Assembly: GCA_964510885.1 (NCBI GenBank)
Contig: CAZEDL010000001.1
Span: 212,663-276,662, forward strand
Direction of reading: 5' to 3'
DNA length: 64,000 nucleotides
Source of the DNA: an uncultured Gammaproteobacteria bacterium
GTDB lineage: Bacteria > Patescibacteriota > Patescibacteriia > Magasanikbacterales > GWA2-37-8
Shown here piece after piece: positions 6,819 through 49,980 of the stretch (within the stretch, counting starts at the first letter, position 1; every line of letters begins with the position of its first letter). The position numbers and the translations under genes were made by a program. The notes beneath the pieces are model-generated. The model was not told where the DNA came from and ran no database searches. It worked only from the letters and a program-made list of their open reading frames with translations.

Positions 6819-7580
6819 ATGATTGAAAAAGATAAAGAAGGTTCGGGAGGAGACATTGGCCCCATGACCACACTCCCCGCTGACACCCTCGTGGTGATTG
6901 AGGCAGAGCTCCCTCCGGACGTGCCTTATGTTCCGGCAGTGGTGTTGGATCCGAACACCCGCCGAAATGAGGCGGTGTACACACCAGAGCTCCTCCGGGC
7001 AGCTGGCCTGTCTGATCCACAGGCTCCACAGCTCCCCCTGCTGAGCGAGGCAGAAGACCATCCGAAGCAGCTACAGGACTATAACGTCGATGTGTCGGAC
7101 CTCTTGGCGGAAGCTGCGGCCGGGCCCCCTCCTCAACCTGGCCCTCCGCCGCTACAACTGCCCACGACTCCACCGGCGCCACAGCGGGCATTCCCGCGCT
7201 CGCGCCTCGGTAGCGTCATCTTGGCGCTCGGTGGCGCTGCTGGCATGGCGCTCATGCTCGCCAACTGGGCCTGGACGAGCCCACCAAAGCCCCGTAGCTC
7301 GACAGATTTCGGTCTGCCGGAGGCAGTGGTGCCTGCGCCCATACCCTCCCCCGACATTCCGCGGCAGTGCCAGCACCTTCCGGCTGCGGCGCGTGGGAAA
7401 CAGTGCCCCGCAGCGACCAGGGCCATTGAGGTCGAGGTACCGGAGCCCCAGAAAAAGCGGCCGAAAAAATCGCGTCGCAAAAGAGCTACACCGCCCACCT
7501 CTCCACCCTCTGTGCCACCACCCGCTGCGGTGGTAGCGCCGCCTGAGCCCGAGCAAGCGCCTCCTCCTCCGGCCGAGTAG
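6819..7580 (+). CDS. Hypothetical proline-rich, single-TM membrane-anchored protein encoded in a high-GC islet
   Basis: ATG 6819 with AGGGAAAGGA SD; PPPQPGPPP / TPPTSPPSVPPP low-complexity segments, central hydrophobic helix (LGSVILALGGAAGMALMLANWAW), basic KKRPKKSRRKR patch; local GC far above flanks. Confidence 0.45.
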   Translation: MIEKDKEGSGGDIGPMTTLPADTLVVIEAELPPDVPYVPAVVLDPNTRRNEAVYTPELLRAAGLSDPQAPQLPLLSEAEDHPKQLQDYNVDVSDLLAEAAAGPPPQPGPPPLQLPTTPPAPQRAFPRSRLGSVILALGGAAGMALMLANWAWTSPPKPRSSTDFGLPEAVVPAPIPSPDIPRQCQHLPAAARGKQCPAATRAIEVEVPEPQKKRPKKSRRKRATPPTSPPSVPPPAAVVAPPEPEQAPPPPAE

Positions 7581-7700
7581 TCACCCCCTGCCCCACCTCC
7601 CATCTGGGACGGCCAACTGGGGCAGGCGCATCGCCCTTCCCCTCCCTGTCATTTTATCTTCGATGAGCTGACAGGTAGAAGGGTGGCGCAATTATTTAAA

Positions 7701-7737
7701 AATATCCTCCTGATTAATCAGGAGGATATTTTTTTAT
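7701..7737. terminator. Strong bidirectional terminator
   Basis: Perfect hairpin ATATCCTCCTGATT-AATC-AGGAGGATAT + T-run. Confidence 0.65.
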
Positions 7738-8842: not shown

Positions 8843-9109
8843 AATAAAGCTTTCACTCTCCTAGCCCACGAGGGCCCAGGGCGGCCGTTTTATAGCCTAA
8901 CTTGTTCTGGGATAAGCCATAATATGAGGTCGTGCAGACCTCACCGCCTGATCAATCTATATTTTTTGCCTAGCAAGAAATTATCGTGCCGGAGATATGG
9001 AATTAGCTGCAAGGTTTTATTTAACCAAAATTATTCGCTTTGCAATATGTTAGAAAAAAGAATTTTATAATGATAACACATTTTATGAACTTTAAGCAAC
9101 TCTCGATGA

Positions 9110-10624
9110 TTGACTGACACGCAATTATCTGATATGATCAGCCACGTTTATAGCTCCACTCATATGGAACATGGCAATGTAATCATTCGGTTTGATACCG
9201 TGCAATTTGCCTACCAAGAAGGCAAGCAGATCCTTGAAGAGGCTAGTTTTTCGGTGCGTAAAAATGCCAAAGTGACCATCATGGGGCAAAACGGAGCGGG
9301 CAAAAGCACTATTTTTAAATTGATCCTCAATGAGCTTAGCCCGGACAGCGGCAGTGTTAGCATCGAGAACGGAGCCAAGATTGCCATTGCCACCCAGGTA
9401 ATGAAGCCGGAATTTTTTGACAAAACAGTGGCCGAATTTTTTGCCACCGCTTTTGAAGAAAAAACCTATGATCTGCCGAAACGAATTAAAGATGTGCTCG
9501 AAATTGTCCATTTGACCGCCCCGTTAGATAAATTGATCAAAGGTTTTTCGGGTGGCCAACAGGCCAGGCTGCTTTTGGCCTATGCCATTATTCAAGAACC
9601 GGATATTTTACTGCTTGATGAACCGACCAACAATCTTGATAGCCAAGGAATTGCGCATCTCACTGAATTTTTGATCAATTATCCCAAGACCTGCTTGGTC
9701 ATTTCGCATGATGCAAATTTTTTGAATGCCTTTACAGACGGCGTGTTATATCTCGATGTCTTCACCAAACAAGTGGAGCAGTATGTGGGCGACTATTACA
9801 ATGTGCTTGGTGAAATCGAAGCGCGGATTGAACGCGAACGCATGAAAAATGCCCAGCTGCGTAAAAGTATCCAAGATCGCAAGGATAAAATAAACTTTTT
9901 TGCCAATAAAGGGGGCAAGATGCGCAAACTGGCCAGCAAATTGCGTGACCAGGTGGAAGAAGCCGAGGATTCAATGGTAGATGAACGGCGCGAAGACAAA
10001 ACAATTAATGACTTTATGATTCCCGCCAGCACCGAACTGGTAGGGCCGGTGGTGGAAATTAGTTCGGTTGGGGTGATGATCGATCATGAGCCAGTACGAA
10101 AAACATTGCTGTCCCCCCTATCGCTTCGTAAAAAACAATGTTTGCTAATTGAAGGACCCAATGGCATTGGAAAGAGCACACTGCTTGCAGCGTTGGCTGC
10201 TGGCACCGAAAGCGGAGCTACGATTGCTAAGGATGTAAAAGTGGGATATTACCGACAAGATTTTTCAGGGCTAAATTTTGATCAAACCGCCTATGAAGCT
10301 TTGGCCGAAATGATGGTGGACCCCTGGAACCAAGAAATTTATGCTACGGCGTCGCAATTTTTATTAACCCCAGAAGTACTGCGTAATAAAGTAGGAGCTT
10401 TGTCGGAAGGTCAAAAAGGACTTTTGTGCTATGCCCGGTTTGTGTTACAAAAGCCGGGTTTACTGATTATGGATGAACCGACGAATCATATTAATTTTCG
10501 ACACCTCCCGGTGATTGCCAAAGCACTCGATGAATTTGAAGGGGCACTGATTCTGGTGAGTCATGCCTATGAATTTATTGGAGAAATAACGATTGATCAG
10601 CGCTTGGATCTGGTGAATATTTGA
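9110..10624 (+). CDS. ABC-F family ATPase (two tandem ABC domains, no TMD)
   Basis: Walker A GQNGAGKST and GPNGIGKST, signatures LSGGQQ / LSEGQK, Walker B LLLDEPTN / LIMDEPTN; start codon uncertain (TTG at 9110 or downstream ATG). Confidence 0.8.
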   Translation: MTDTQLSDMISHVYSSTHMEHGNVIIRFDTVQFAYQEGKQILEEASFSVRKNAKVTIMGQNGAGKSTIFKLILNELSPDSGSVSIENGAKIAIATQVMKPEFFDKTVAEFFATAFEEKTYDLPKRIKDVLEIVHLTAPLDKLIKGFSGGQQARLLLAYAIIQEPDILLLDEPTNNLDSQGIAHLTEFLINYPKTCLVISHDANFLNAFTDGVLYLDVFTKQVEQYVGDYYNVLGEIEARIERERMKNAQLRKSIQDRKDKINFFANKGGKMRKLASKLRDQVEEAEDSMVDERREDKTINDFMIPASTELVGPVVEISSVGVMIDHEPVRKTLLSPLSLRKKQCLLIEGPNGIGKSTLLAALAAGTESGATIAKDVKVGYYRQDFSGLNFDQTAYEALAEMMVDPWNQEIYATASQFLLTPEVLRNKVGALSEGQKGLLCYARFVLQKPGLLIMDEPTNHINFRHLPVIAKALDEFEGALILVSHAYEFIGEITIDQRLDLVNI

Positions 10625-31765: not shown

Positions 31766-32608
31766 CTAGGGCTGAAAGGCCCGGGCGCGGATGTCTGGCG
31801 GGATGAAATCGAGCTCCATCGCGGCTGCCTGCCGCGCCATCTTTCTGACGTCGAACAGAGCTGGGCCTGCTGGATGCTGATTGAACATAATGGGCGCCAC
31901 CAAGGGCAGAAGGTTTCTTACGACCCACATCCGAATGCGCCCAAGCTGTGTTCTGACGTAGACGAGGTGACCAACCTCATCGATGAGGATTTGCTCGATC
32001 AGGTCGAGTATGCGGCGACCAGCCGTTGTTTCGGTACCGAGCAGCTGGCTCGTTTTCTCTCGAAGGGCGACGAACATGAGAACCGCTCCAATCTCACCGA
32101 CCAACCCGAGCATACTACTAATGCTGTGTGGCAGTATGGCCGCCAGGAGAAGAAAAAGCCGCATGAAGCCGCGCGGCTTGCGCATCTCGGCGTTGAGGCC
32201 GAGTACGCTCAGTGCGTCCACCAGGATGCGGGTGTGATATATCTCCTCAATTTCGATAGTGGTCATGGGATCCTTCAAATCCGTCCTTCGACGGATGGCG
32301 AGCGCGATCTCGATGGCGTAGGCCTCCGCCATGTTGACTGAGGCCAAGAGCCCAGCGAAGATTGCGATGTGCGAGCAATGCCTGATGTCCGCGACAGATA
32401 TCGCGTTGAGGACTCGGCTATATTCATCTAAACACACTTGACCATCCCACTTGACGGGGTTAGCGGCATGCTCGGAGAAATATACCTCACGCGCCGCGAG
32501 TGTATGGTTCTCGAGGCCTACCTCTCCATTGCGCTGCTTGCTCCATTGTAAGTACGCTGCAGCTTGTCGAACCCGCTCTTTCCTAGAAAGTACTCGCAGA
32601 AACTTCAT
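31766..32608 (-). CDS. Hypothetical protein with two E…ExxH pairs (possible ferritin-like diiron fold), in a GC-elevated islet
   Basis: EAYAIE…EEIYH and GEIG…DEVGH spaced ~30 aa; 280-aa ORF in ~57% GC DNA; could be partly spurious. Confidence 0.3.
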   Translation of the reverse strand: MKFLRVLSRKERVRQAAAYLQWSKQRNGEVGLENHTLAAREVYFSEHAANPVKWDGQVCLDEYSRVLNAISVADIRHCSHIAIFAGLLASVNMAEAYAIEIALAIRRRTDLKDPMTTIEIEEIYHTRILVDALSVLGLNAEMRKPRGFMRLFLLLAAILPHSISSMLGLVGEIGAVLMFVALREKTSQLLGTETTAGRRILDLIEQILIDEVGHLVYVRTQLGRIRMWVVRNLLPLVAPIMFNQHPAGPALFDVRKMARQAAAMELDFIPPDIRARAFQP

Positions 32609-34865: not shown

Positions 34866-35167
34866 ACTAGGATACAGAACTTATTTACTTACTATTTTTC
34901 GCATTTTATATTTAATGACCCCGTATACGCAGGAAGATTATACTAATCATTATAAAGATGCAACACAGACATTTATTAAGCGATAGGCTGAATACGTAGA
35001 GGGTATAGAATTATTTTTTGAATTAATCTGACAGCTGGTTTAATGATGTGCAGATAAACAATTAAGAAACTGTACTTTTCATGAATGAACTGAGATAAAT
35101 GTATCTTTTTTGATCTAATTTTTTGAAGTAAAAACTAAGACACCGGCATTAAAGCTGCTGTCTTAAA

Positions 35168-35184
35168 TGTAGCCCGTACGGGAA
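35168..35184. repeat. Partial (17-bp) third copy of the tRNA-Glu att core
   Basis: TGTAGCCCGTACGGGAA identical to first 17 nt of the 24-bp repeat; diverges after. Confidence 0.55.
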
Positions 35185-35342
35185 ATCTTGTGCGTCGTCG
35201 CTACGCTCCTCCTACACAAAAACCTTCGGGTTTTCGTGGGCTTTCCTCCCCAGGTAAAAAACTCCATTTCTTACCATCTTGCGTGCGATTCAGTGGATCA
35301 AAAAACAAATAAAATACTCCCTTATTAAGGGAGTATTTTATT

Positions 35343-35366
35343 TGTAGCCCGTACGGGAATCGCACC
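35343..35366. repeat. Left att direct repeat (24 bp) of integrative element
   Basis: TGTAGCCCGTACGGGAATCGCACC identical to 42063-42086. Confidence 0.7.
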
Positions 35367-35568
35367 AACTCAAGCAAATTCTGAATTTTCCTACGGTTGA
35401 GCAATTATACGCTGACGTTAGCTAAAAGTCTAATTCTCATTCGTTCTCAAGTATCCGCATCCGTACTCCCCTTTCATCACTTTTTGGCCACAGGGTGGAC
35501 ACAAACTTTTAAGATGTTCAACGGCAACACAGAGAAAGTGATATTGCGGGGAAACCCGTATAGAAAAT

Positions 35569-36228
35569 TTATGGTAGAGGAAGGTTCTTGTCCTTCTTTC
35601 CAAAAAGGACGTAAATAAAGGCTTTATAGTAAAAAAGTAAGCCTCCGGCCACTAATCCTACCCAAGTTAAAACAGAAAATAAAATTGTTTGTATATAAAA
35701 AATGTAATTTCTCTGATACTTAACTATGTCTTGATATTCACAATTATTTCGATCATCTTTATTGATAAGACAAACCAAACTTTTCTCCTTGATTGTATTG
35801 ATAACATAAGTTTTCAAAAACTCCCTTTCTTTTCCTTGGTTATCATAATAATTAGGAATAATTACAGGCAACACCGAATCAAGAGAACTCAAAATATCTT
35901 TATTGCAATAACTATCTTTAGAAAGACTATACTCCGAAAGCCACTTATAATTATTTGCTGGTTTATCAAGGCATCCTAGCTCACCTTTTGTAGCCAAAAA
36001 ATCAGGCAATACATTGGTGGAGCTATCTACACTCTTGGTATATTCATTAAGATTTGAAATAATCTTAGTATTTGAAGGTTTTAATTGTAATAAGAAATAG
36101 TACGAAATCGGTATTAGAACTATTAGTAAGGAAATAATAAGAAAGAAAACCACCTTAAATAGCCTGTGCCACCATTTAGAATTTAAGTTTAAGTCTGGGC
36201 GAAAAAAATTATTATATCTTTGCTTCAT
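35569..36228 (-). CDS. Hypothetical membrane protein (island cargo)
   Basis: 219 aa, TM near N-term and C-term. Confidence 0.4.
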   Translation of the reverse strand: MKQRYNNFFRPDLNLNSKWWHRLFKVVFFLIISLLIVLIPISYYFLLQLKPSNTKIISNLNEYTKSVDSSTNVLPDFLATKGELGCLDKPANNYKWLSEYSLSKDSYCNKDILSSLDSVLPVIIPNYYDNQGKEREFLKTYVINTIKEKSLVCLINKDDRNNCEYQDIVKYQRNYIFYIQTILFSVLTWVGLVAGGLLFYYKAFIYVLFGKKDKNLPLP

Positions 36229-36305
36229 AATATTAAAAAAATTAACGCCTCACCTTTTCACTTTCGTAAACTTGCTTAAAATATTTCCTAGTTTTCATGT
36301 TATTT

Positions 36306-36665
36306 TTATCTAAATTTTTCTACCTCATTATCATAATCCGACCTTGTATCAACCGCTTTTATTTCTTTTCCTTCTAAAATGTCCTTCAGTACAAAGGATG
36401 TATAGACTTTTTCCTTGCCATTAAAATCGGCATGTGTGACTCTGGCTAAACCTTCTAAACACGTATCCAGCTTTGTGCTGTAAAAAATTTCCAACAGAGA
36501 AAGGTTGTTATAGGGAGAATTTTCAGTGTTATACTTTTCGATATTTTGTTTTTCAGTAGAAATATAGTTTGAACATTCAAGTTTTTTCTGAAAACTAATA
36601 TCATTTTTTGCACAACCCGCACCTATCATTAGAAAAATGATCAAGAAAAAACCTATTTTTCTCAT
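36306..36665 (-). CDS. Hypothetical lipoprotein (island cargo)
   Basis: Signal peptide + lipobox IGAGC. Confidence 0.45.
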   Translation of the reverse strand: MRKIGFFLIIFLMIGAGCAKNDISFQKKLECSNYISTEKQNIEKYNTENSPYNNLSLLEIFYSTKLDTCLEGLARVTHADFNGKEKVYTSFVLKDILEGKEIKAVDTRSDYDNEVEKFR

Positions 36666-36679
36666 AAATTATTGTTAAT

Positions 36680-37288
36680 TTATCTAAAAGTACTAGTAAC
36701 GGTACTTGAACTACTCAGACCCGTGTCTGTATTAAGCACACTAGTAACAGGGGCTATTTTTTTAGAAGTCGGATGTAGAAAACTTAAAAGGCTTCCCCAA
36801 TTAAACACCACCGCAATAACCAGAACAGCAAGAAGAGTGAAAAAACCTACTATAAAAAAGCTGTTAATTTTTTTTGTAATGGCAGAAAAGGCAATTTTTG
36901 TTGTTGGTAATTGTGCTTTATAAAAAGCATACACTAAGACTAAAAATCCTAAGTAGCCTAAATATCTTTTTAAACTAGACATTTGTCCAAATGCGCTGAT
37001 AATAATATAACCAACCAAACTAACAAGCATTGTTGTAAAAGGAAGTTTTTCTTCAAGATGGGCTAATAAACTAGGGACGTATTGGATACCATAATTGTCA
37101 CCGCCACCCAGCCCTTTCCTACTAGTCCAGTCATCTGACGAAGTACCCCCACCGCTCTTAGTGCCACCCTCTTGATTAACTGAATTAGGTTGCCCAAAAC
37201 TACTGATATCCTCAAAATTATCAGTATCTATAGAAACTCCGGTTGGTTTTTCGTTCGTATTCCTAGAATCAACCGCTCCGTTATTCAT
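36680..37288 (-). CDS. Hypothetical membrane protein with Gly/Ser-rich N-terminal region (island cargo)
   Basis: 202 aa; GGTKSGGGTSSDD low-complexity then 3-4 TM. Confidence 0.4.
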   Translation of the reverse strand: MNNGAVDSRNTNEKPTGVSIDTDNFEDISSFGQPNSVNQEGGTKSGGGTSSDDWTSRKGLGGGDNYGIQYVPSLLAHLEEKLPFTTMLVSLVGYIIISAFGQMSSLKRYLGYLGFLVLVYAFYKAQLPTTKIAFSAITKKINSFFIVGFFTLLAVLVIAVVFNWGSLLSFLHPTSKKIAPVTSVLNTDTGLSSSSTVTSTFR

Positions 37289-38003
37289 AGAAATATGTCA
37301 AAAAACCATTGTGTATTTCTTCGATTGCATTCACATTTGATTTACACAGGTTTAGTAATTGATCCGGATCCAAGACCATCTCTTTATTTTGATAGAAATC
37401 AATGCTACAAAAAGTGCCACAGTCACGCTTGAAATTTTCCGGATAAATCTTTTTATTTTCAAAAAACCGAGTAAAAGCCTCTTCTGCAGAAACAGGGCCG
37501 GTTTGAAAATTATACTTACCTTCAGATCGTTCGCAATCATTAAAGGTATAACCAAAATCTAATATTTTTGAATTAGTATAAGTTTCAAATGAGGCATAAT
37601 TTTTAAACATTTTTTCTTTATACCTTGTTTTTATATTCTCAAGGTTATCTGCGCTTCTATAGTTCAAAACCAAGGACTTTGTGCCGACCCGTATTAAAGA
37701 CTTGATGGGGTATTTATCAAATTTTCTTAAAATTCTAAATAAATCATCAATTTTATTACGAAACTCGCCAAAATCAGGAGAAGCTTCAATTTGAAGACCA
37801 AAATTTTCTAAACTAAAAAAAAGAAACTCTGAAAAATCTTCAGTAGCAACATCCACTCGATCGTTTGCCATTCTTATTTTTGTAAACTCTGAATTTCTAG
37901 ATATTAAATACTCCGCCATCTCGCCTTTAAAATCTATGAAAGAAAATTTTCTATTCTTTAATCGAATTTCTAGAAGATGCCTAATTATTTTTGTATCCGA
38001 CAT
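37281..38003 (-). CDS. Hypothetical protein (island cargo)
   Basis: 240 aa soluble, no recognised motif. Confidence 0.4.
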   Translation of the reverse strand: MSDTKIIRHLLEIRLKNRKFSFIDFKGEMAEYLISRNSEFTKIRMANDRVDVATEDFSEFLFFSLENFGLQIEASPDFGEFRNKIDDLFRILRKFDKYPIKSLIRVGTKSLVLNYRSADNLENIKTRYKEKMFKNYASFETYTNSKILDFGYTFNDCERSEGKYNFQTGPVSAEEAFTRFFENKKIYPENFKRDCGTFCSIDFYQNKEMVLDPDQLLNLCKSNVNAIEEIHNGFLTYFYE

Positions 38004-38129
38004 AATAGTAAATTCTATTTTAGAATAGAAATTAAAGCCTTGAATTTTAGAAATTTAAAATTTGTGTATAGGCTAATTTTGCTATACTATAGCAGAAAAT
38101 CAATATTTTACAAGCAAAATCCTCCCACT

Positions 38130-39242
38130 ATGCCCTCCCCTAACCCTCAAGTCGTCACCGCCATAGATACAGGTAAAATGTTAGAAAGACTACATTCTTC
38201 AACACAGACAACCGAGCAGAATTTTCTTCCTACGTTATTTGACTATCTAGAGTATATAGTTAAGAATCCAAAAACTAAGGCTCTGCTTCAGGAATTAGAA
38301 AAATCCCGAACAGATGCCTATAGCAGCTACTTTGAGCTTAAATCGAAGTCAAAAAAAGAACTTGAGAAATCAAAAAAAATACTCTTAGGAGCAGTCGCTA
38401 AAAATAAAATACAGAATCCTCAGCTAAAAGAGCGTACTGAAAACTGGAAACGTTATGAAAAAGGTGAAATAAGTAGCAACGCACTTTATGAGCACCGATT
38501 AGAAAGCTTTCTAATCGATATCTTCGATATTCTTTTTAAAGAGGGGTGCGGATCACTAATTGAGCCTTTATTTCCCAAAAATAACTATGGAAATTTGATT
38601 TTTTCTCCCTCTTTAGCCTTGTTTAAGAGAGAAAGTGAAAGGATAGACGAATTAAGAGATATTGAAATGTGGCATTGTTGGTATTCATTAAAATTTGTAC
38701 CCGAAATATCTAAACAAACTTTTGGCGATATAATGCACTCTCAAGGCCATTTAACTCACGAAGAGATCGGCTATTATTTTGACGCCTTACGTTTTAGGCA
38801 AGAGGGGCGAAAAGAAAAATCCAAGGATTATGAAGAGGATTTGCCAAAATATAAGGGCTATTTGAATCGACTGCACAACTATCTTGTTCAAAGATTGGAC
38901 GAAAGTAAAACCATTCCACTAGAGCAACCAATGACCCACAAGCTCAACTTTTTTCCAGCAGACGGAACAGCTCAATACAGAGGATCCAGCTATATATTCG
39001 CCTCAGGAACCAAAGGGCATGAATTATTAAACTTCTTATTTAACTCAAAAAATACCCCTTTAGAATTGCGCTACTTTCAAGAGCGATGTAACGAGAAAAT
39101 CAGGATCGGAAGGAATAAATTTAAAACAGACAAAGATATTTTAGACACGGTTAACCATATTAAAAAAAGACTGAAAGTGAATAAGAGTGAATACTTTCCT
39201 ATTTTTAAAACCGAAAAATGCTTTATTTGGGAGGAAAAATAG
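38130..39242 (+). CDS. Hypothetical protein (island cargo)
   Basis: start set at ATG 38130 (track ORF starts earlier and overlaps the divergent gene); terminator at 39300-39328. Confidence 0.4.
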   Translation: MPSPNPQVVTAIDTGKMLERLHSSTQTTEQNFLPTLFDYLEYIVKNPKTKALLQELEKSRTDAYSSYFELKSKSKKELEKSKKILLGAVAKNKIQNPQLKERTENWKRYEKGEISSNALYEHRLESFLIDIFDILFKEGCGSLIEPLFPKNNYGNLIFSPSLALFKRESERIDELRDIEMWHCWYSLKFVPEISKQTFGDIMHSQGHLTHEEIGYYFDALRFRQEGRKEKSKDYEEDLPKYKGYLNRLHNYLVQRLDESKTIPLEQPMTHKLNFFPADGTAQYRGSSYIFASGTKGHELLNFLFNSKNTPLELRYFQERCNEKIRIGRNKFKTDKDILDTVNHIKKRLKVNKSEYFPIFKTEKCFIWEEK

Positions 39243-39375
39243 CATTCACTCGGTTCACTTCATTCATCCACATAGAGAAGCAAAGAAAAACCCCATAGAA
39301 TCGTAGTATCAGACACTACGATTTTTTATTTAATACTTGGTTGCAAATCGCTGTTTTTCTTATCTGGCTTTTCCT

Positions 39376-39429
39376 GGGAGGGTTAGGCCGGAAGGTAAGC
39401 AGCGACTTGTTACCAATAACCCTCCCATG
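39376..39429 (+). promoter_or_regulatory. RBS-sequestering hairpin (GGGAGGGTTA…TAACCCTCCC) directly before start codon
   Basis: Perfect 10-bp inverted repeat, 31-nt spacer, 3' arm ends at ATG 39427. Confidence 0.45.
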
Positions 39430-40695
39430 GATACCGTCCGTCTAAAATTTAGCCATTACCTACCCAAAACTTCCTTTTTTAAGGATAAAGTTTTAAGTAA
39501 GGTTTTAGCCTTAGAATCAGGCGCAGGTAAGCGTTATATCTTCACCAACAACGAATGGCGTAAGCAGCGCCAAGCGCAAGGTTTGTATACTCCTAAATAC
39601 TGGATTGAGGAGGATGTTGTAATACCCTCAAATACTTTCTTCTATATCGAGTGCTCTCTGCCCAAGCTGCACTGGGGACAAAATATAACCGAACCAACAG
39701 ATACCGATTTAGAGCCTATAGTCGCCTCTCTAAGAGCTTTTTTGAGAGAAATTGAGGTATATGTCAGTACGGGTCAAATCCTCAACGCTACCCCTACTCT
39801 TGTAGCAGTAGGAAAGAATATTGATCTCACCCGTTTCTGCTCCGTCGACTTAACTCTAAAAGCACTTAGCCCTTTTGACTTCAAGCCAAAAACTAAGCAT
39901 CGGTTTATTGATTTTTTGGATTGTGAGCATGGGGGCAGGCAGATAATTTTTTCCAAAAAAGAAGAAACGCTTAAGCTCTACAACAAACTATCTGAAGTAG
40001 CCAATAATGCTATTACCGATAAAGAAAAAGCTGTAAGGCAGGCCGTTGAGAAGCAGCGTTACCGCTCAGAAGCTATCTATGTCAACGAAATGCTTAGAAC
40101 AGAGCTAACACTTAAAACAAGACGAAAGATAGAGAATAGATTTAAAAAGTACCTGCCTACTGGCCAAGAGGTGAATTTTCAAAATCTCTTCAAAAAATCA
40201 ATTTGGGATAAATTGCTAGCCGAAGAAATAGCGACCGTATATATGCACCCACTACGGCATTTTGTTTTTCTAGCACAAGAAAATAAGCCAATTATTGAGG
40301 CTTTCTTGGACAAAAACCACAAGCATATCGAGACGAAAGATACGGTAATGGGAATTATTGGCTCTTTACAGGAATATGGCCTAGCTCAAACCCGCCAGAG
40401 ATACTTGGCAAAATACGACAGCAGACAGACTTGGTACAACTATCTAAAACGGTTTAAAAAAATTGATGAAGCATACGATTTTAGTTCGCTGGCTAACTCT
40501 GATAATTACAAAATTTACTGCCATATTCTTGGACAATTTGGCTTAGATACTGCCGCCCAAGCTAGTTTTGATTTCGATACATTGTCTAAAAAACTAGACA
40601 GCGAGCAGTGTAATACTAATTGTGATAAACTAACAGCGACCAAGGCGGCTAGTCCGTCTTCTGTGTTGCTCTCTGACAATTTATATGGATGCTGA
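39427..40695 (+). CDS. Hypothetical protein; possible rolling-circle replication initiator (weak Rep_trans-like N-terminus)
   Basis: N-terminal DTVRLKFS resembles iDwLrfTf start of replication-initiation-factor family; otherwise unassigned. Confidence 0.3.
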   Translation: MDTVRLKFSHYLPKTSFFKDKVLSKVLALESGAGKRYIFTNNEWRKQRQAQGLYTPKYWIEEDVVIPSNTFFYIECSLPKLHWGQNITEPTDTDLEPIVASLRAFLREIEVYVSTGQILNATPTLVAVGKNIDLTRFCSVDLTLKALSPFDFKPKTKHRFIDFLDCEHGGRQIIFSKKEETLKLYNKLSEVANNAITDKEKAVRQAVEKQRYRSEAIYVNEMLRTELTLKTRRKIENRFKKYLPTGQEVNFQNLFKKSIWDKLLAEEIATVYMHPLRHFVFLAQENKPIIEAFLDKNHKHIETKDTVMGIIGSLQEYGLAQTRQRYLAKYDSRQTWYNYLKRFKKIDEAYDFSSLANSDNYKIYCHILGQFGLDTAAQASFDFDTLSKKLDSEQCNTNCDKLTATKAASPSSVLLSDNLYGC

Positions 40696-40921
40696 TTGTA
40701 CCCCACAATCCAAGCTCCGCTTTCTAACACCGCCAGAGGTGGCTGCTTTTCTGTGTATTTCCAAAGCCACTGTCTACCGCTTTATTGAGAAGCGAACCCT
40801 CCCCTTCTACAAAATCGGCGGATCAATCCGGTTTAAAGAAAGCGACGTTTTGGACTATATCGAACAGTGTCGGGTACAAACAGCTACAGAACTATATGAG
40901 CACACTAAAACGAGGAAATAA
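40685..40921 (+). CDS. Excisionase/AlpA-like helix-turn-helix DNA-binding protein
   Basis: LTPPEVAAFLCISKATVYRFIEKRTLPFYKIGGSIRF HTH_17 pattern; overlaps int start. Confidence 0.6.
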   Translation: MDADCTPQSKLRFLTPPEVAAFLCISKATVYRFIEKRTLPFYKIGGSIRFKESDVLDYIEQCRVQTATELYEHTKTRK

Positions 40922-42026
40922 CTGGTATATCGATTTCTGGTTTGACCGTATCCGATACCGTAAGCGTAGCCCTGACAATAGCAAAGCAGGGGCAGAGGCT
41001 TACGAAGTACTGCTACGCCAGAAACTAGCTCACGGAGAGCCGATTATAGAGGTTAAAGAGGTTGCTAAAAACATCCCCACCTTTGCAATCTTCTCTCAAG
41101 AGTGGCTAGCGTCGTACGTTCAGAACAATAATAAGTATTCCGAAGCTGAAAATAAACGCTCCGCCCTGAACTATAACCTTATCCCCTTTTTCGGGAAACT
41201 TCCTTTAGATCAGATTGCTACCCGTAACGTAGAGGAATACAAAGCTGCCAAGATTAAGGCTGGACTAAAAAACAAGAGCATCAACAATCATTTGTCTTGC
41301 CTCAGAAAATGCCTGACTACAGCTCAAGAATGGGAAATGCTCGAACATGTGCCAAAGATAAAGCTACTTAAAGTACCACCGCCAGAAACTAAATTCCTAA
41401 ACCAAGCAGAATGCGAACGGTTGCTCAAAGTGGCCACAAACAACTGGTACGACATGATTTTTACCGTCATGCGTACCGGCATGCGATTTGGCGAACTTGT
41501 TGCCCTGAAATGGTCGGATATAGACTTCAACGGAAGAATTATTACCATCCAACGAAGTATAGCCCGTGGAAAAATGGGCAGCACCAAAAGCAACAAAATC
41601 AGAAAAATCCCACTGGCTAGCGACCTATCAAGTCTGCTAGATAGAAAAAGAAGGAACGGAGTATTCGTTTTTGCGGATGGACAAGGGAATCTTCCTAAGC
41701 AGGACTTCTGTCGCAGCCACTTACTACGCCTAGCAGAAAAGGCCGATGTTGAACTTATTGGGTGGCACACTTTACGCCATACCTTCGCCTCGCATCTAGC
41801 TAATAACGGGGTAGCTGTTCATGTCATCCAGCAACTACTTGGACACTCCGACATTAAGACCACGATGCGCTACTCGCATATCGCTCCTACGACGCTGGTG
41901 AACGCAATTAGCGTACTTGAAAACAGCTCTCCACTGTTTTGGACACAGGATGGACACAAGCAAGAAAATTCTGAAATCGGACAGCTCTTCAAAACTTTTT
42001 CTTCGACTCGTATTTTCGCTCAATAA
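40896..42026 (+). CDS. Tyrosine-type site-specific integrase
   Basis: N-terminal arm-binding-like WYIDFWFDRIRYRKRS; C-terminal catalytic R…HTLRHTFAS…H…RY (LGHSDIKTTMRYSHI). Confidence 0.85.
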   Translation: MSTLKRGNNWYIDFWFDRIRYRKRSPDNSKAGAEAYEVLLRQKLAHGEPIIEVKEVAKNIPTFAIFSQEWLASYVQNNNKYSEAENKRSALNYNLIPFFGKLPLDQIATRNVEEYKAAKIKAGLKNKSINNHLSCLRKCLTTAQEWEMLEHVPKIKLLKVPPPETKFLNQAECERLLKVATNNWYDMIFTVMRTGMRFGELVALKWSDIDFNGRIITIQRSIARGKMGSTKSNKIRKIPLASDLSSLLDRKRRNGVFVFADGQGNLPKQDFCRSHLLRLAEKADVELIGWHTLRHTFASHLANNGVAVHVIQQLLGHSDIKTTMRYSHIAPTTLVNAISVLENSSPLFWTQDGHKQENSEIGQLFKTFSSTRIFAQ

Positions 42027-42030
42027 CGCA

Positions 42031-42055
42031 AAAAACAGAGTTGTCTCTGTTTTTA
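42031..42055 (+). terminator. Terminator after integrase
   Basis: ACAGAG-TTGT-CTCTGT hairpin + TTTT. Confidence 0.5.
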
Positions 42056-42062
42056 AATCGCG

Positions 42063-42086
42063 TGTAGCCCGTACGGGAATCGCACC
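42063..42086. repeat. Right att direct repeat (24 bp) overlapping 3' end of tRNA-Glu
   Basis: Identical to 35343-35366. Confidence 0.7.
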
Positions 42087-42136
42087 CGTCTTTGAGCCGT
42101 GAGAGGGCCCTGTCCTAACTGATAGACGAACGGGCC
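42065..42136 (-). tRNA. tRNA-Glu (anticodon CTC)
   Basis: Hand-folded: acceptor GGCCCGT/ACGGGCT (one G-U), U8, D-arm TTCGTCTA… like bacterial tRNA-Glu, anticodon loop CTCTCAC, 4-nt variable loop, T-arm ACGGG-TGCGATT-CCCGT (unusual G at position 55), discriminator A. Confidence 0.65.
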
Positions 42137-42197
42137 ATCAGTTTTAGCAGTGATAGATTAGCAAAAATTTAGCAGATAGTCAACGCTTGGTTGATCC

Positions 42198-45327: not shown

Positions 45328-47154
45328 TTAGCCGTTGCTTTTAGCTTTGCGGCGGGCCTCGTTTTCATTGAGGATCATCTTGCGGATACGGACATTTTTG
45401 GGGGTAATTTCAACCAATTCATCGTCGCCAATATATTCGAGGGCATCTTCGAGTTCCATGATACGTGGGGCATTAAAATGTTCGGCCGTGCCGTCGCCTT
45501 TGGAGCGCATGTTGGAGAGCTGTTTCATTTTGCAGACATTGATGCGCAAGTCGCCGCTCCGGTTGTTCTGGCCCACCACCTGGCCTTCATAGACATCGAT
45601 ATTCGGGCCAACGAACATCACACCGCGATCCTGTACGCCGAGGAGGCCATAGAGGGCGGTGGTGCCAGTTTCATGAGCCACGAGCGAGCCCTGATTGCGC
45701 TCTTTCCAGTTGCCAGGGTCGGGCAAGTAATCGAGGAAGATGCTATGCATAATGCCAAGGCCTTTGGTGTCGGTGAGGAATTCGGTGCGGTAGCCAAACA
45801 GCCCACGAGTCGGGATATCAAATTCCATGAACATGATGCCATTTTCAGAACGCATATCTTTGAGTTGACCATTACGGCTGCCCATTTTTTGCATAATCAC
45901 GCCGTTGTAAATTTCCGGAACTTCGATATAGACATGGTCATATGGGCACATTTTTTGGCCATCGATTTCTTTCATAATTACCTGCGGGCGTGAAACTTGG
46001 AATTCAAATCCGTCGCGGCGCATGCGTTCGATAAGAATAGCGAGATGCAATTCACCACGGCCGGAAACGATCCAATCACCACTATCACTGTCTTCAACCC
46101 GGAGCGCAACATCGTTTTCAGCTTCTTTAAATAAGCGTTCGCGGATTTGACGCGACGTGCTGTAATCACCTTCTTTGCCGGCAAAGGGCGAATCGTTAAC
46201 GGCAAATGTCATTTTTACGGTTGGTTCATCGATGGTAATCGTTGGCAAAGCCACCGGATTTTGCACATCGGCAAAGGTGTCGCCAATCGTGACATCAGGA
46301 TTGCCAGCTACCGCTACTACATCCCCTACTTCTGCTGATTCAATTTCCATGCGATCGAGGCCCATAAAGGTCATAAGGGCGGTGAGGCGGAATTTTTTCT
46401 GGTGTCCGGCGCGGTCGATGTGCATCACTTCTTGGTTCTTTTTAATCGAACCATTGTAAATGCGACCAATGGCGATACGGCCCTTGAAGTTGTCGGCGAC
46501 GGTTGAAACAACGAGCATCTGGAGCGGCTTGCCGGCATCTCCGCTCGGAGTAGGAACATTTTTTAAAATAGCATCAAACACTGGCGTAATATCAGTCATC
46601 GCATTTAGATCTGGAGTAGTGCCAGCTTTACCTTGTTTGGCCGAAGCGAATACTACCGGGAATTCAGCAATTTCATCGCTCGCACCTAATTCCAAAAATA
46701 GCTCTAAGGTTTTATCGAGTACATATTGAATACGAGCATCTGGTTTATCAACTTTATTAACGACTACAATCACGCGGTGACCCATCTGGAGGGCCTTGCG
46801 CAGTACAAAGCGAGTCTGCGGCATCGGGCCTTCTTTGGCATCCACGAGGAGCAAACAGCCATCGGCCATTTTGAGCACACGCTCCACCTCACCGCCAAAG
46901 TCAGCATGGCCGGGGGTATCGATAATATTGATCTTGGTAGCCACGTTGGTGTTTGGATCAGTCCAGGTGACCGAGGCGTTTTTAGAAAAAATGGTGATAC
47001 CGCGTTCGCGTTCCAAATCATTGTTATCCATGATTGTGGTAACGTCAGCGAATTCTTTGGCGAGTTTGGTTTTGGATTGGCGCAGCAAGGCATCCACGAG
47101 CGTAGTTTTACCGTGGTCAACGTGAGCAATGATAGCAACGTTACGAATATTCAT
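45328..47154 (-). CDS. typA: Translational GTPase TypA/BipA
   Basis: MNIRNVAIIAHVDHGKTTLVD G1 motif, EF-G-like domains; start set at ATG 47152-47154. Confidence 0.85.
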   Translation of the reverse strand: MNIRNVAIIAHVDHGKTTLVDALLRQSKTKLAKEFADVTTIMDNNDLERERGITIFSKNASVTWTDPNTNVATKINIIDTPGHADFGGEVERVLKMADGCLLLVDAKEGPMPQTRFVLRKALQMGHRVIVVVNKVDKPDARIQYVLDKTLELFLELGASDEIAEFPVVFASAKQGKAGTTPDLNAMTDITPVFDAILKNVPTPSGDAGKPLQMLVVSTVADNFKGRIAIGRIYNGSIKKNQEVMHIDRAGHQKKFRLTALMTFMGLDRMEIESAEVGDVVAVAGNPDVTIGDTFADVQNPVALPTITIDEPTVKMTFAVNDSPFAGKEGDYSTSRQIRERLFKEAENDVALRVEDSDSGDWIVSGRGELHLAILIERMRRDGFEFQVSRPQVIMKEIDGQKMCPYDHVYIEVPEIYNGVIMQKMGSRNGQLKDMRSENGIMFMEFDIPTRGLFGYRTEFLTDTKGLGIMHSIFLDYLPDPGNWKERNQGSLVAHETGTTALYGLLGVQDRGVMFVGPNIDVYEGQVVGQNNRSGDLRINVCKMKQLSNMRSKGDGTAEHFNAPRIMELEDALEYIGDDELVEITPKNVRIRKMILNENEARRKAKSNG

Positions 47155-47162
47155 ACTAACAT

Positions 47163-47189
47163 TAAAACATGAAAACACGAGAACATTTT
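47163..47189. repeat. Conserved ~27-nt motif CATTAAAACATGAAAACAC(G/T)AGAACAT, copy 1 (upstream of typA)
   Basis: Near-identical to 59920-59946. Confidence 0.55.
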
Positions 47190-47376
47190 GAACCATGCTG
47201 AAATCCGTACGCACGGAAAACAATGTAAACCGCGAATTTCTTTATTAAAAAAACTGCTTTTTAGCGAGCAGGATCACTTTTAAAGTGGCTTAACCTTAGC
47301 ACAAATTCGGCTATTCGTCAAACTGAAATACCCTAGAATACGGGGTGGCGCTGCCAGGAGCCCCCGGCAGGCAGCG

Positions 47377-47853
47377 CTAGCGCTCTACAAGCGGTGGAGT
47401 GAATATAAACGAAAAGAACATCCCGGGGACACTTGCCCTCCCCACTACATCACCGCCGAAGCTAGCAATAAGGGCCGGACACAGCCACGATTGACTACAG
47501 GTAGCCACTTCTAGCCCGGCGGCCACCACCACGCTGTCGTTTGGCGTGCCGTCATATGGCGTGCTGGCAGAGAGATAGGGCCCGATTAGCAGCGGGCCGA
47601 CCGGAAATAGCCAGTCGACTGACAGACTAAGGCTACTACTGACCGGGCACACCTCGAATGTGATCGAGGCGTACTGCCTTTTTTTAAGGCCTTTCTGCAA
47701 AGCTAGGCCAAGGCACGGCTCGATAGTGACCGCAGGATTTGGTTCTAGCGGCACGGTCATCGAGAGATCGGCGACGAAGAGGAGTGACTCTTCGGCAGCG
47801 GCTGTGAGCGTACTTGCCAATAAACAAAAAATGACGAGGGTCGTTCTCATCGT
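47377..47853 (-). CDS. Hypothetical secreted protein (high-GC islet)
   Basis: Signal peptide MTMRTTLVIFCLLASTLTAAAEE; no recognised domain. Confidence 0.4.
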   Translation of the reverse strand, partial: TMRTTLVIFCLLASTLTAAAEESLLFVADLSMTVPLEPNPAVTIEPCLGLALQKGLKKRQYASITFEVCPVSSSLSLSVDWLFPVGPLLIGPYLSASTPYDGTPNDSVVVAAGLEVATCSQSWLCPALIASFGGDVVGRASVPGMFFSFIFTPPLVER

Positions 47854-48015
47854 CATGTCACGGACCTCCAAACGATTGGTTAGACGTTTGAGGTGATACT
47901 AGCAAGTTTCTATGGATTCGTATACAGAGGCCGCTGTGCAGCCGCTTTGTACGAACTGCCAGGCCAGCCCGCGCGAATCGGAGACTCGCGGGGCGGCCTG
48001 GCTGGTTCTAGTGGT

Positions 48016-48582
48016 TCAATGGGTGGGATCCGGGATCGGCGCGCTGAGTAGCATGCCGATCCCGTGGCCAGGGTGGCCGTGGTGATCGGGGTGGAGCAGG
48101 TGCCCCACGATTACGGACACGCTGGTCCGTTTCGTGGGCTTCACCCGCAGGGTTGGGCCCGCCACATTCCCGCCAAAGCCGGGCTTTTCGCCGCTGAGCG
48201 CGACGATTAAGCCATCTCCGAGCCCGAGCGCCCAGCTGGGGCTGAGGGCGCGCAAACCGGCGATGGTCAGGATGAGCTGGAACTGCGGCTGGGTGTTCAT
48301 ACCCAGCTCGATCTCCCAGAGGAGCATCCACGCTCCCTGGCCACACTTGCCACCGATCCCGACGCCGCCGTCCCCAATGTACTCGGGCCGCAGCCTTGGC
48401 TCACCAAGGTGCAGCTCCTTTTCAAAAGGAGCAGCGAAGGACAGGCTCAATACCGGGTGCGGTCGCCCGCACCGGAAGCCTGCCGGCTGGTGGGGGCCGG
48501 CTTCATCGTCAGCACGAACCTCGCTCCCCACCAGGAGCAAGGCAATTACAAGTAGGGCGAAAATGCCCTTGTGACCCCTCAT
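48016..48582 (-). CDS. Hypothetical secreted protein with His-rich C-terminus (high-GC islet)
   Basis: Signal peptide MRGHKGIFALLVIALLLVGSEVRA; C-term HLLHPDHHGHPGHG. Confidence 0.4.
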   Translation of the reverse strand: MRGHKGIFALLVIALLLVGSEVRADDEAGPHQPAGFRCGRPHPVLSLSFAAPFEKELHLGEPRLRPEYIGDGGVGIGGKCGQGAWMLLWEIELGMNTQPQFQLILTIAGLRALSPSWALGLGDGLIVALSGEKPGFGGNVAGPTLRVKPTKRTSVSVIVGHLLHPDHHGHPGHGIGMLLSAPIPDPTH

Positions 48583-48633
48583 CTAGATACCTCCGAAAGA
48601 AGATGGTGCCACTTCGAACAGAATTGTTCGCAG

Positions 48634-48680
48634 TTGGCATTTAGAAAATTCACATTTTGTATGCGCTTTCTAAATGCCAA
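48634..48680. promoter_or_regulatory. 14-bp perfect inverted repeat TTGGCATTTAGAAA-N19-TTTCTAAATGCCAA
   Basis: Located ~50 bp upstream (minus strand) of secreted-protein gene start. Confidence 0.4.
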
Positions 48681-48950
48681 TTAATTACGAACTCTGTTTT
48701 TAAACCACTAGAATAGTGAGAAGACTAAGAGAACAGAGAATCCCATTTGGTGGGATTAGCCGCGACAAGCAAGCTCCCTTACACAGAAAAAAGCCGAACA
48801 TTTCGATATTTTTCTCTGTAAAAGTCGCTCACTAGGCGGGGACTCTGTACCATCTTACTTCTCGTTGTAAAGAACGATTTCTTAAATTCTGTAAAAAATT
48901 TAAGAAATCACTATAGCATAAAAATAGGAATTTGTCAATGTATTTTTTCT

Positions 48951-48980
48951 GGGGATAAAAAAATCCCCTGGCAGGGATTT
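48951..48980 (-). terminator. Rho-independent terminator (minus strand) downstream of 39-aa ORF
   Basis: minus strand AAATCCCTGCCAGGGGATTTTTTTATCCCC. Confidence 0.55.
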
Positions 48981-49079
48981 AGCTTACTTAAGCCTCTTTT
49001 AAGGCCTAAACAAGCCCTACAAGAGGCCGCGCATCTGAGTTAAAGATGCGCGAATAGATGCGCGGCCCTCCTGCCGTGG

Positions 49080-49199
49080 TTAGTGAGCGGGTGGTGATCC
49101 GATGCCGGTCACACCGGCATAGATGACCCAGGCATAAAATGCTACACAGAGCGCGAGAAGAGCTGCCATGCCAACGCGGCGAAAGATATAGAGAGCCAT
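49080..49199 (-). CDS. Small hydrophobic protein (39 aa), type-I-toxin-like arrangement
   Basis: GGAGGTAAGTC-ATG strong SD; MALYIFRRVGMAALLALCVAFYAWVIYAGVTGIGSPPAH single TM; hairpins at both ends. Confidence 0.35.
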   Translation of the reverse strand: MALYIFRRVGMAALLALCVAFYAWVIYAGVTGIGSPPAH

Positions 49200-49275
49200 G
49201 ACTTACCTCCCGAAGGTGGCAAGTCTAATCTTAAAAAGATTTTGCTTGCCACCGCCGAGAGGATTTGTAAAAGAG

Positions 49276-49980
49276 CTAAAAAATTTCAAAATGAATATGC
49301 TTCATCGGCACTTTTTGGACCAGCAGAGCTGACCGGACATCTTTAATCATCTCCAAACTACCACACACATAATATTCGGCAAGCTCGGGGAGCGTGGGCA
49401 GATGAGCGGTGACGCGACCGATCCTACCCTGCCATTTGGCTGGTTCGTGCGCGCCGGAGAGGCAGATTGAATAATCAAAGGATGGCAGATCTTTTTTGAG
49501 GGCAGCCAAGCGATCATGCCAAAAGACATCATGCTCGGTACGTACCCCAAATAATACGGTTTGACTCTCCCCTGCTTTAAATTCAGTTGGCTGATCGGCC
49601 AAAATACTCAGAATCGGGGTGATGCCGGTGCCCGTAGCCACGAATACTTTGGTTGGGAGTGCCGCCGGAGTGACCACAAAAAAGCCCTGCGCAGCAGAGA
49701 AAATAACTTCACTGTTCAGACTCAAAACGTTGAAATACTGTGAAGCTGCCCCACCAGGAAGAATTTTGATGCAAAACTCGAGGTAGTCGGCATTGGGGGC
49801 TGAGGCAATCGAATAACTGCGCCAAACCGGTTCGGTGCTAGTTGGGATTTTGAACTGCACGAATTGACCGGCTTTAAACTCAAATCCAGCCGGACGCGAT
49901 ACCCGAAATATTAAGACATCGCTCGTGACGAAGTGGCGTTCGGTGAGGACTCCGGTATATTCGACTCGGACGGGTGACAT
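49276..49980 (-). CDS. Ferredoxin-NADP reductase-like FAD/NAD(P)-binding oxidoreductase
   Basis: RSYSIAS (FAD RxYS) and GTGITP (NAD) motifs. Confidence 0.65.
   Translation of the reverse strand: MSPVRVEYTGVLTERHFVTSDVLIFRVSRPAGFEFKAGQFVQFKIPTSTEPVWRSYSIASAPNADYLEFCIKILPGGAASQYFNVLSLNSEVIFSAAQGFFVVTPAALPTKVFVATGTGITPILSILADQPTEFKAGESQTVLFGVRTEHDVFWHDRLAALKKDLPSFDYSICLSGAHEPAKWQGRIGRVTAHLPTLPELAEYYVCGSLEMIKDVRSALLVQKVPMKHIHFEIF

Follow-up and report, generated by a model that had tools for sequence, protein, structure and literature searches.

The 64,000-nt stretch analysed here (the window; contig CAZEDL010000001.1, positions 212,663 to 276,662) carries a GC-rich islet between typA and a gene for an FNR-like protein, with two minus-strand open reading frames (ORFs), orf188 and orf164. 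The islet recurs at the same site in four genomes, keeps its deviating composition there, and folds as RNA far more strongly than any of 33 control segments. On balance, we take it to be a transcription unit native to a small Patescibacteria clade (candidate phyla radiation, CPR, near Magasanikbacteria), passed on vertically and not recently imported, that appears to be under selection for RNA structure. The unit would run from a near-consensus σ70 promoter through a folded leader of ~320 nt and orf188 to a strong 3′ hairpin, and orf164 would be an extra orphan gene of the window genome, placed between this hairpin and the typA promoter.

Synteny and composition of the islet

The initial annotation had placed two minus-strand genes in strongly GC-rich DNA between typA and an FNR-like gene, and a GC scan together with Pfam matches of the flanking genes bore this out. 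In windows of 200-300 nt, GC content is 0.60-0.695 over positions 47,321-48,640. The whole 64-kb window has a mean of 0.450 (200-nt windows: standard deviation 0.073, 99th percentile 0.66), and the only other stretch that is equally extreme is 6,821-7,720. The islet deviates in both composition and codon usage, with a GC content of 0.65 against a background of 0.45 and, in orf188, a GC content at third codon positions (GC3) of 0.77 where native codon usage would give 0.51. The two ORFs occupy 48,016-48,582 (orf188) and 47,377-47,871 (orf164). Long overlapping ORFs, which had been listed as spurious, are indeed present on both strands of the patch and are an ordinary by-product of high GC. The orf188 frame has GC contents of 0.70, 0.48 and 0.77 at the first, second and third codon positions (GC1, GC2 and GC3) and is the sole frame with the coding pattern GC3 > GC1 > GC2. 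Therefore, it is the coding frame. The neighbouring genes encode, according to Pfam, a Mur ligase, a penicillin-binding protein (PBP) transpeptidase, TypA/BipA, the FAD/NAD-binding FNR-like protein and SufB.

Gene order around the islet (sufB, FNR-like, typA, PBP) is kept in Magasanikbacteria-like CPR genomes. In L004 and L008, the gap between the FNR-like gene and typA measures only ~72 bp and holds no orf188 homologue. In the closest relative, L003 (SufB 88% and FNR-like protein 56% identical), the gap is 1.5 kb long and contains a 188-aa ORF with a putative signal peptide in DNA of 0.56-0.62 GC. L087 has the gene for a second homologue, P0005, followed by typA (74% identical to that of the window), and in L088 the gene for a third homologue, P0007, comes after an FNR-like gene (47-50% identical) and a gap of 444 bp. 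An orf188 homologue therefore occupies the FNR-like/typA interval in three further genomes, which is not the pattern of a recent gain. The L003 contig (CAZXIF010000040.1) is labelled Gammaproteobacteria; its gene order, its sufB and its next-best relatives, which are metagenome-assembled genomes of Magasanikbacteria, point to CPR/Patescibacteria, and the label is probably wrong.

All four copies are GC-rich islets within flanks of roughly 0.40-0.50 GC, and their GC3 values (0.77, 0.61, 0.80 and 0.82) stand against 0.42-0.53 in the adjacent genes. At four-fold-degenerate sites of sufB and typA, identity between the window and L003 or L087 is 0.36-0.39, where chance would give 0.26. Because synonymous sites between these genomes are near saturation, a GC excess that was merely inherited should have decayed. 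With native codon usage orf188 would still have an overall GC of 0.56, so that about half of its GC excess stems from amino-acid composition (rich in Gly, Ala, Pro and Leu) and about half from the choice of G/C-ending synonymous codons. Homologues of native composition in close relatives had been named as evidence that would overturn the view of the islet as foreign; homologues do exist in relatives, but their composition is equally non-native.

SRR16481187 and SRR16481186, assembled independently of each other in Logan, both match positions 47,835-49,162 at 100% identity, so the upstream junction between low-GC and high-GC DNA is genuine and not a mis-join. Both Logan contigs stop near 47,835-47,880, and the validation of the assembly that had been called for thus covers the orf188 side, with the orf164 half lacking such support. 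The L003 locus was assembled again from another sample (L089). No tRNA or integrase was found at the islet borders with Rfam and with Pfam searches of the neighbours, and direct repeats flanking the islet are short and at chance level.

Predicted RNA structure along the proposed transcription unit

Against dinucleotide shuffles, the coding region of orf188 gave folding z scores of -7.4 and -8.0. The corresponding values were -5.4 and -6.7 for the L087 homologue, -5.0 and -4.4 for the L088 homologue, -6.0 for the L003 homologue, and -4.0 and -4.2 for orf164. The 33 control segments comprised 16 segments of other window genes (z from -2.2 to +2.1) and 17 GC-matched coding segments from high-GC bacteria (GC 0.62-0.71, GC3 0.70-0.95; z from -1.4 to +1.1); flanking genes of the other loci ranged from -2.2 to +0.2. 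The gap between the high-GC controls and the -8.0 of orf188 speaks against the foreign origin that the initial annotation had proposed. Shuffling synonymous codons, which preserves both the protein and its codon usage, still left z scores of -8.3, -6.75, -3.7, -3.65 and -3.4 (the last for orf164), compared with -0.1 to -1.7 for controls. Since the excess survives this shuffling, pairing is written into the choice of synonymous codons.

A scan of the 64 kb in 200-nt windows had a mean z of -0.54 (standard deviation 1.54). Seven of its 20 windows with z ≤ -3 fall in 47,601-49,400, including the two most extreme, and a finer scan bounded the structured zone at about 47,550-49,250, which takes in the leader and both ORFs. 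The sense strand usually folds more strongly within this zone, and it does so in three of the four whole ORFs. Isolated structured windows (z from -4.9 to -5.6) start at 1,001, 25,401, 35,201 and 60,001 and probably represent terminators or small structured elements of another kind. Within the ORF, no common fold is claimed, because a codon-aware alignment with alifold gave a low structure conservation index; what is conserved in the coding region is the degree of structure and not a demonstrable shared fold.

Structure in the region peaks in a 150-nt stretch (local z -8.0) with a 16-bp GC-rich hairpin that directly follows the orf188 stop codon, at 47,958-48,002 on the minus strand (inverted repeat I2), and has no U-tract. 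This region is about 69% similar to positions 8,927-8,988 of L003, and by inspection L087 has a comparable long GC-rich hairpin after its stop codon. An 8-bp GC hairpin (47,348-47,377, minus strand) that overlaps the stop codon of orf164 marks where the islet ends.

Upstream of orf188, the only σ70-like site in 47,100-49,400 is TTGACA-17-TATAGT with an extended -10 TG (48,910-48,938, minus strand; 11 of 12 matches), which predicts a transcription start near 48,903. Both hexamers are invariant in L003, and the L088 homologue is preceded by an analogous TTGACA-17-TAAACT. Just ahead of the islet promoter, an intrinsic terminator with an 8-bp stem and a U-run (48,961-48,980, minus strand; terminator scan and sequence) ends the unit of the FNR-like gene and a small ORF. 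This small ORF (49,080-49,199, minus strand), just downstream of the FNR-like gene and preceded by GGAGG, encodes 39 aa of hydrophobic sequence (MALYIFRRVGMAALLALCVAFYAWVIYAGVTGIGSPPAH), probably a small membrane protein; its Shine-Dalgarno (SD) sequence and ATG position are kept in L003, which encodes a different hydrophobic peptide of ~31 aa. In L088, positions 820-975, between the FNR-like gene and the promoter of the homologue, carry a near-perfect inverted repeat of ~30 bp (CATGTGTATGCATTTACAACATATTTTCAA...) around a second inverted repeat, a large nested hairpin that we describe as either a terminator or similar to a miniature inverted-repeat transposable element.

From the predicted start to the orf188 ATG, the leader would span ~320 nt (48,583-48,903, minus strand). 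It comprises a hairpin at the 5′ end (~48,880-48,905), a core with a three-way junction (48,724-48,861), a 14-bp hairpin (48,634-48,680), a small hairpin and the SD sequence. This layout is common to the loci, with a 5′-end hairpin that differs in sequence from genome to genome. Folding z scores of the leader were -6.8 in the window, -5.7 and -5.2 for its counterparts in L003 and L088, and -4.5 in L087, where only the 3′ part was scored. Over 160 nt of the core, the window and L003 share 86% identity, and large leader blocks are invariant, while the spacer DNA directly ahead of the promoter aligns poorly between these two genomes and four-fold-degenerate sites are only 0.39 identical. With RNAalifold, six leader pairs are changed on both sides between the window and L003, and a further six compensatory pairs occur in the long terminal hairpin across the window, L003 and L087; these covariation counts rest on two to three sequences.

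A search of Rfam 15 (4,227 families; gathering and E-value mode, E ≤ 5) returned one tRNA plus chance-level matches and no credible match to the leader in the window, L003, L087 or L088. A covariance model of the leader core detected the window, L003 and L089 (the L003 organism in its other sample). The metagenome pattern GTGAGCGAC-N25-55-GTGTAAGGGAGC for the leader had three matches, all unrelated and due to chance. Like riboswitches and other cis-regulatory leaders in Rfam, this 5′ untranslated region (UTR) places several helices between promoter and SD sequence and has invariant blocks and compensatory changes. Unlike them, it matches no Rfam family and has no evident terminator/anti-terminator or proven SD-sequestering switch; a terminator scan found no U-tract terminator between leader and ATG. 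The leader sequence does allow other pairings to be drawn. We regard the leader, from these few sequences, as a candidate for a new cis-regulatory or stabilising RNA. The leader RNA and the orf188 protein family are both undescribed.

The orf188 protein family and orf164

The ATG of orf188 lies 7 nt downstream of GGAGG (48,590-48,594), and the N-terminus of its predicted product, MRGHK-GIFALLVIALLLVG-SEVRA/DD, reads as a Sec-type signal peptide. SD sequence, ATG and a putative signal peptide are present in all four copies of the family. By inspection, the four members and orf164 alike have a basic n-region, a hydrophobic core of 13-16 residues and an AxA-like site, in agreement with the signal peptides first noted on both ORFs.

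The family is an orphan of four members among about 15 billion proteins. Word-indexed searches returned only self-matches for orf188, orf164 and the L003 homologue (5.8 billion proteins for orf188 and orf164). An exhaustive profile search of 1.84 billion representative proteins found P0005 (E 1.4e-11) and P0007 (E 5e-4), and the L003 ORF is weakly similar to orf188 (E 7e-6). High-GC bacteria had been suggested as the place to look for relatives; beyond the four members, the same 1.84 billion representatives yielded no homologue in these or any other organisms. P0004 and P0006 were set aside as spurious, being giant repeat proteins with 17 and 9 matched stretches (P0006 was read). Neither orf188 nor orf164 matched Pfam, NCBIfam, PHROGs or the sequences of the PDB, in line with the absence of a recognisable domain at first reading, and viral scans gave one chance match of a 20-mer and no protein relatives.

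In a codon-aware alignment of the family, nucleotide identity follows the order second > first > third codon position in six of six pairs (e.g., 0.52, 0.73 and 0.43 at positions 1, 2 and 3), and orf188 is thus under protein-level selection. The protein shares only 22-32% identity with its three homologues, compared with 46% between P0005 and P0007 and 74% for typA. Conserved throughout the family are two Cys, a block E-[IL]-x-LGMN-[TS]-x-P-x-[FM]-Q-[ML]-P-x-T, a GG-x-x-x-GP turn and a final strand PG-x-S-x-F-x-S-x-A-F. Charged residues make up about 14-17%, and Gly, Ala, Leu, Val and Pro are abundant. We consider the orf188 protein to be probably Sec-exported, disulfide-bonded, charge-poor and all-β, and likely associated with the envelope or membrane.

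A fold model of orf188 (predicted local distance difference test, pLDDT, 52.5; low confidence) resembles small eight-stranded barrels, including the transmembrane domain of OmpA; a two-sequence AlphaFold2 model was unusable (pLDDT 31.7). We describe the product as a small, probably secreted β-rich protein, possibly an eight-stranded meander barrel, and assign it to no known family. It differs from the membrane barrels OmpX, OmpA-TM, OmpW and PagL, and from the soluble avidin, UPF0311 and YceI-like barrels, in having no sequence similarity to them. It also differs from outer-membrane barrels at the C-terminus, which in the window protein is PIPDPTH, with no terminal aromatic residue such as a β-signal would have. 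None of the family C-termini (...SAPIPDPTH in the window, ...SVAFRP, ...GFALR and ...RPQRHH) ends in an aromatic residue, and an aromatic residue two to three positions from the end is found in some members only.

The His-rich stretch reported at the C-terminus exists (HLLHPDHHGHPGHG) but is not terminal: it covers residues 161-174 of 188 and precedes the last hydrophobic strand. Seven His occur in these residues of the window protein, compared with one, none and one in the aligned segments of P0005, P0007 and P0003, respectively. The cluster is confined to the window protein, the homologues retaining only a G-x-HP-x-x-G remnant, and a metal-binding tail is not a feature of the family.

For orf164, an ATG at 47,856, 8 nt after GGAGG (47,865-47,869), gives 159 aa (47,377-47,856, minus strand), with an N-terminus, MTMR-TTLVIFCLLASTLT-AAA/EE, that likewise reads as a Sec-type signal peptide. 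The gene is moderately GC-rich (GC1, GC2 and GC3 of 0.56, 0.49 and 0.62) and its RNA is structured. Unlike orf188, it is absent from the syntenic site in L003, L087 and L088, and its only match in the 5.8 billion proteins is to itself. The idea that orf164 arose from orf188 by tandem duplication and then diverged was rejected, as BLASTP, hhalign and hmmsearch gave no significant similarity. It is a singleton ORF, backed by its length at its GC content, its SD sequence and its signal-peptide-like start only.

Downstream of the islet, typA has its own promoter, TTGACG-17-TAAGGT (TTGACG at 47,316-47,321, minus strand). This promoter and the typA leader (together in 47,254-47,321) are conserved in L087 (about 765-880) and L003 (about 9,080-9,160). 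Within the typA leader, a conserved hairpin, CUGCU...AGCAG, precedes a run of seven U, an arrangement that resembles an attenuator or a terminator ahead of the gene.

Origin and meaning of the islet

Synteny, the coding status of orf188, the persistence of the composition and the excess of structure are demonstrated here, and the transcription start, the export, the fold and the purpose of the structure are inferences. If the islet is native, its GC content would reflect the amino-acid composition of orf188 together with selection for mRNA structure along the whole transcript, from the 5′-terminal hairpin and the leader through the coding body to the 3′ hairpin. DNA that encodes structured RNAs tends to have a higher GC content than its genome as a whole (PMC8632094); in the islet, this enrichment would reach into a coding region.

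Such structure would most likely serve to prolong the life of the mRNA and to control, through the leader, how an abundant surface protein is translated. We favour these purposes because the 5′ hairpin, the long UTR and the 3′ hairpin resemble those of ompA-type mRNAs. In Escherichia coli, ompA has a stabilised mRNA with a 5′-terminal stem-loop in its UTR and a 3′ hairpin, and it encodes an abundant eight-stranded barrel of the envelope. The islet would share with it a strong promoter of its own, a hairpin only a few nt from the predicted 5′ end, a 5′ UTR that is both long and structured, another hairpin immediately behind the stop codon, and a putative signal-peptide product whose low-confidence model is near eight-stranded barrels including the OmpA transmembrane domain. 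It differs in its leader (about 320 nt versus about 130 nt, with no sequence relation), in a structure excess that covers the coding region from end to end and alters base composition, and in its host, a CPR bacterium. CPR bacteria are generally considered to have no outer membrane, and this lineage is not known to possess β-barrel assembly (BAM) machinery.

Several observations weigh against a native unit shaped by selection on RNA structure. The family has four members and all structure values are predictions. The structure conservation index in the coding region is 0.14-0.37, and alignment z scores against codon-column shuffles are -1.4 to -2.6. The L088 copy folds slightly more strongly in antisense than in sense. 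L088, like L087, is missed by the covariance model built from the leader core, and homology of the leader is solid just for the window and L003, with the terminal hairpin in L087 in addition. The signal peptides were judged by eye, the fold model of orf188 is of low confidence (pLDDT 52.5), and orf164 is without comparative support. We put forward only tentatively a bolder form of the proposal, that the ~1.6-kb transcript is bifunctional, a large structured RNA that at the same time codes for a fast-evolving secreted barrel protein, with structure selection strong enough to make the gene a GC-rich islet and maintained across lineages that are near saturation at synonymous sites.

It is unlikely that the islet is mainly a non-coding, or a bifunctional, structured RNA of ~1.6 kb in which the secreted protein is secondary or co-opted. 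The structured zone is unbroken over about 47,550-49,250, the z score of -8.3 after synonymous shuffling points to constraint on the nucleotides in addition to that on the protein, conservation of the leader is strong, and the GC enrichment described for structured-RNA templates (PMC8632094) would fit such an RNA as well. OLE, GOLLD, ROOL and HEARO RNAs are likewise structured over more than 1 kb, GC-enriched relative to their genome and very negative in folding z. The coding signature of orf188, however, is clear, with the order of codon-position identities and the conservation of signal peptide, Cys and motifs. Pairs in the coding region are not kept column by column, and no Rfam family matches. 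Unlike the large RNAs just named, the islet encodes a conserved protein, does not match their Rfam models, and has within the ORF no long-range conserved architecture that could be demonstrated.

Somewhat less probable again is a mutational process specific to the locus and without selection, such as template switching at quasi-palindromes or GC-biased gene conversion, acting on a rapidly evolving gene for a surface protein. In its favour, the orf188 protein diverges very rapidly (22-32% identity to its homologues, where neighbouring genes have 74-88%), the hairpins differ among homologues, and the signal is present on both strands, L088 being more structured in antisense. Such a process would need the same local bias in four lineages, stopping at the gene borders. 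Nor would it account for a low-GC leader that is likewise structured and is conserved in sequence, or for the preference for the sense strand, which is seen in three of the four homologues and in the majority of local windows.

Less likely still is acquisition from a high-GC donor, either as an ancient transfer with incomplete amelioration or as a cassette exchanged repeatedly among relatives. The islet does resemble a horizontal one in its local anomaly of GC and codon usage, in its orphan secreted proteins and in its patchy distribution, the orf188 gene being absent from L004 and L008; moreover, orf164 occurs in one genome only, and the most divergent orf188 copy sits in the closest genome, L003. 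Unlike a horizontal islet, it is syntenic in four genomes, with a homologous leader, over near-saturated synonymous divergence. Such divergence should have eroded a GC3 excess that was carried along passively, yet values of 0.61-0.82 persist. Neither mobility genes nor integrase, tRNA, target-site repeats or convincing flanking repeats were found, and the 1.84 billion representative proteins held no donor-like homologue from a high-GC organism. Furthermore, genes of high-GC bacteria fold like their own shuffles and orf188 does not. The description of the islet as foreign is therefore not borne out, at least for orf188.

A chimeric assembly, with GC-rich reads from a different organism built into a contig of CPR origin, is very improbable: the contig does come from a metagenome-assembled genome and the orf164 half lies beyond the point where both Logan contigs end, but 47,835-49,162 spans the GC junction at 100% in two assemblies, the arrangement recurs in three other genomes (and in the re-assembled L003 locus), and the promoter of typA, which comes next downstream, is conserved and native. 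Horizontal transfer and assembly error are thus both poorly supported, and we retain the reading of a native transcription unit under selection for RNA structure.

The initial annotation had grouped this islet with two others of the same pattern, which is doubtful. Islet 1 (6,819-7,580, plus strand; GC-rich over 6,821-7,720) contains an ORF of 253 aa, rich in Pro, hydrophobic in a central segment and without a Pfam match, which has its own TTGACA-type promoter after a terminator. It shows no RNA-structure signal (z from -1.1 to -1.9; -1.7 with synonymous shuffling). Because the RNA of islet 1 is not unusually structured, the islets are not all of one kind. What is probably islet 2, a 280-aa ORF at 31,766-32,608 (minus strand; GC3 0.67, no Pfam match), has folding z scores of -2.2 against dinucleotide shuffles and -0.9 against synonymous shuffles. 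Elsewhere in the window, positions 35,000-42,140 form a low-GC block (0.31-0.39) with a tyrosine-recombinase (phage integrase) gene at its end (40,785-42,026), adjoined by a tRNA-Glu(CTC) gene (42,064-42,136). This block looks like a separate integrated element.

A compositional islet that persists together with a very large excess of mRNA structure is unusual, and is best seen as a variant of structured leaders and of selection on mRNA folding. Compositional islets are routinely taken as marks of horizontal transfer. The present one is syntenic, persistent and tied to a folding excess far beyond that of the 33 controls, and because of this, some islands in small-genome bacteria may reflect selection on RNA. 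If selection on structure does act on the whole transcript, such islets would be signatures of RNA structure and not of horizontal transfer. If the structure is functional, this locus would also be an unusually clear case of mRNA structure shaping synonymous sites over an entire coding region. The islet adds an undescribed leader RNA and an undescribed family of predicted secreted proteins to the CPR, bacteria whose surface biology and gene regulation are little known.

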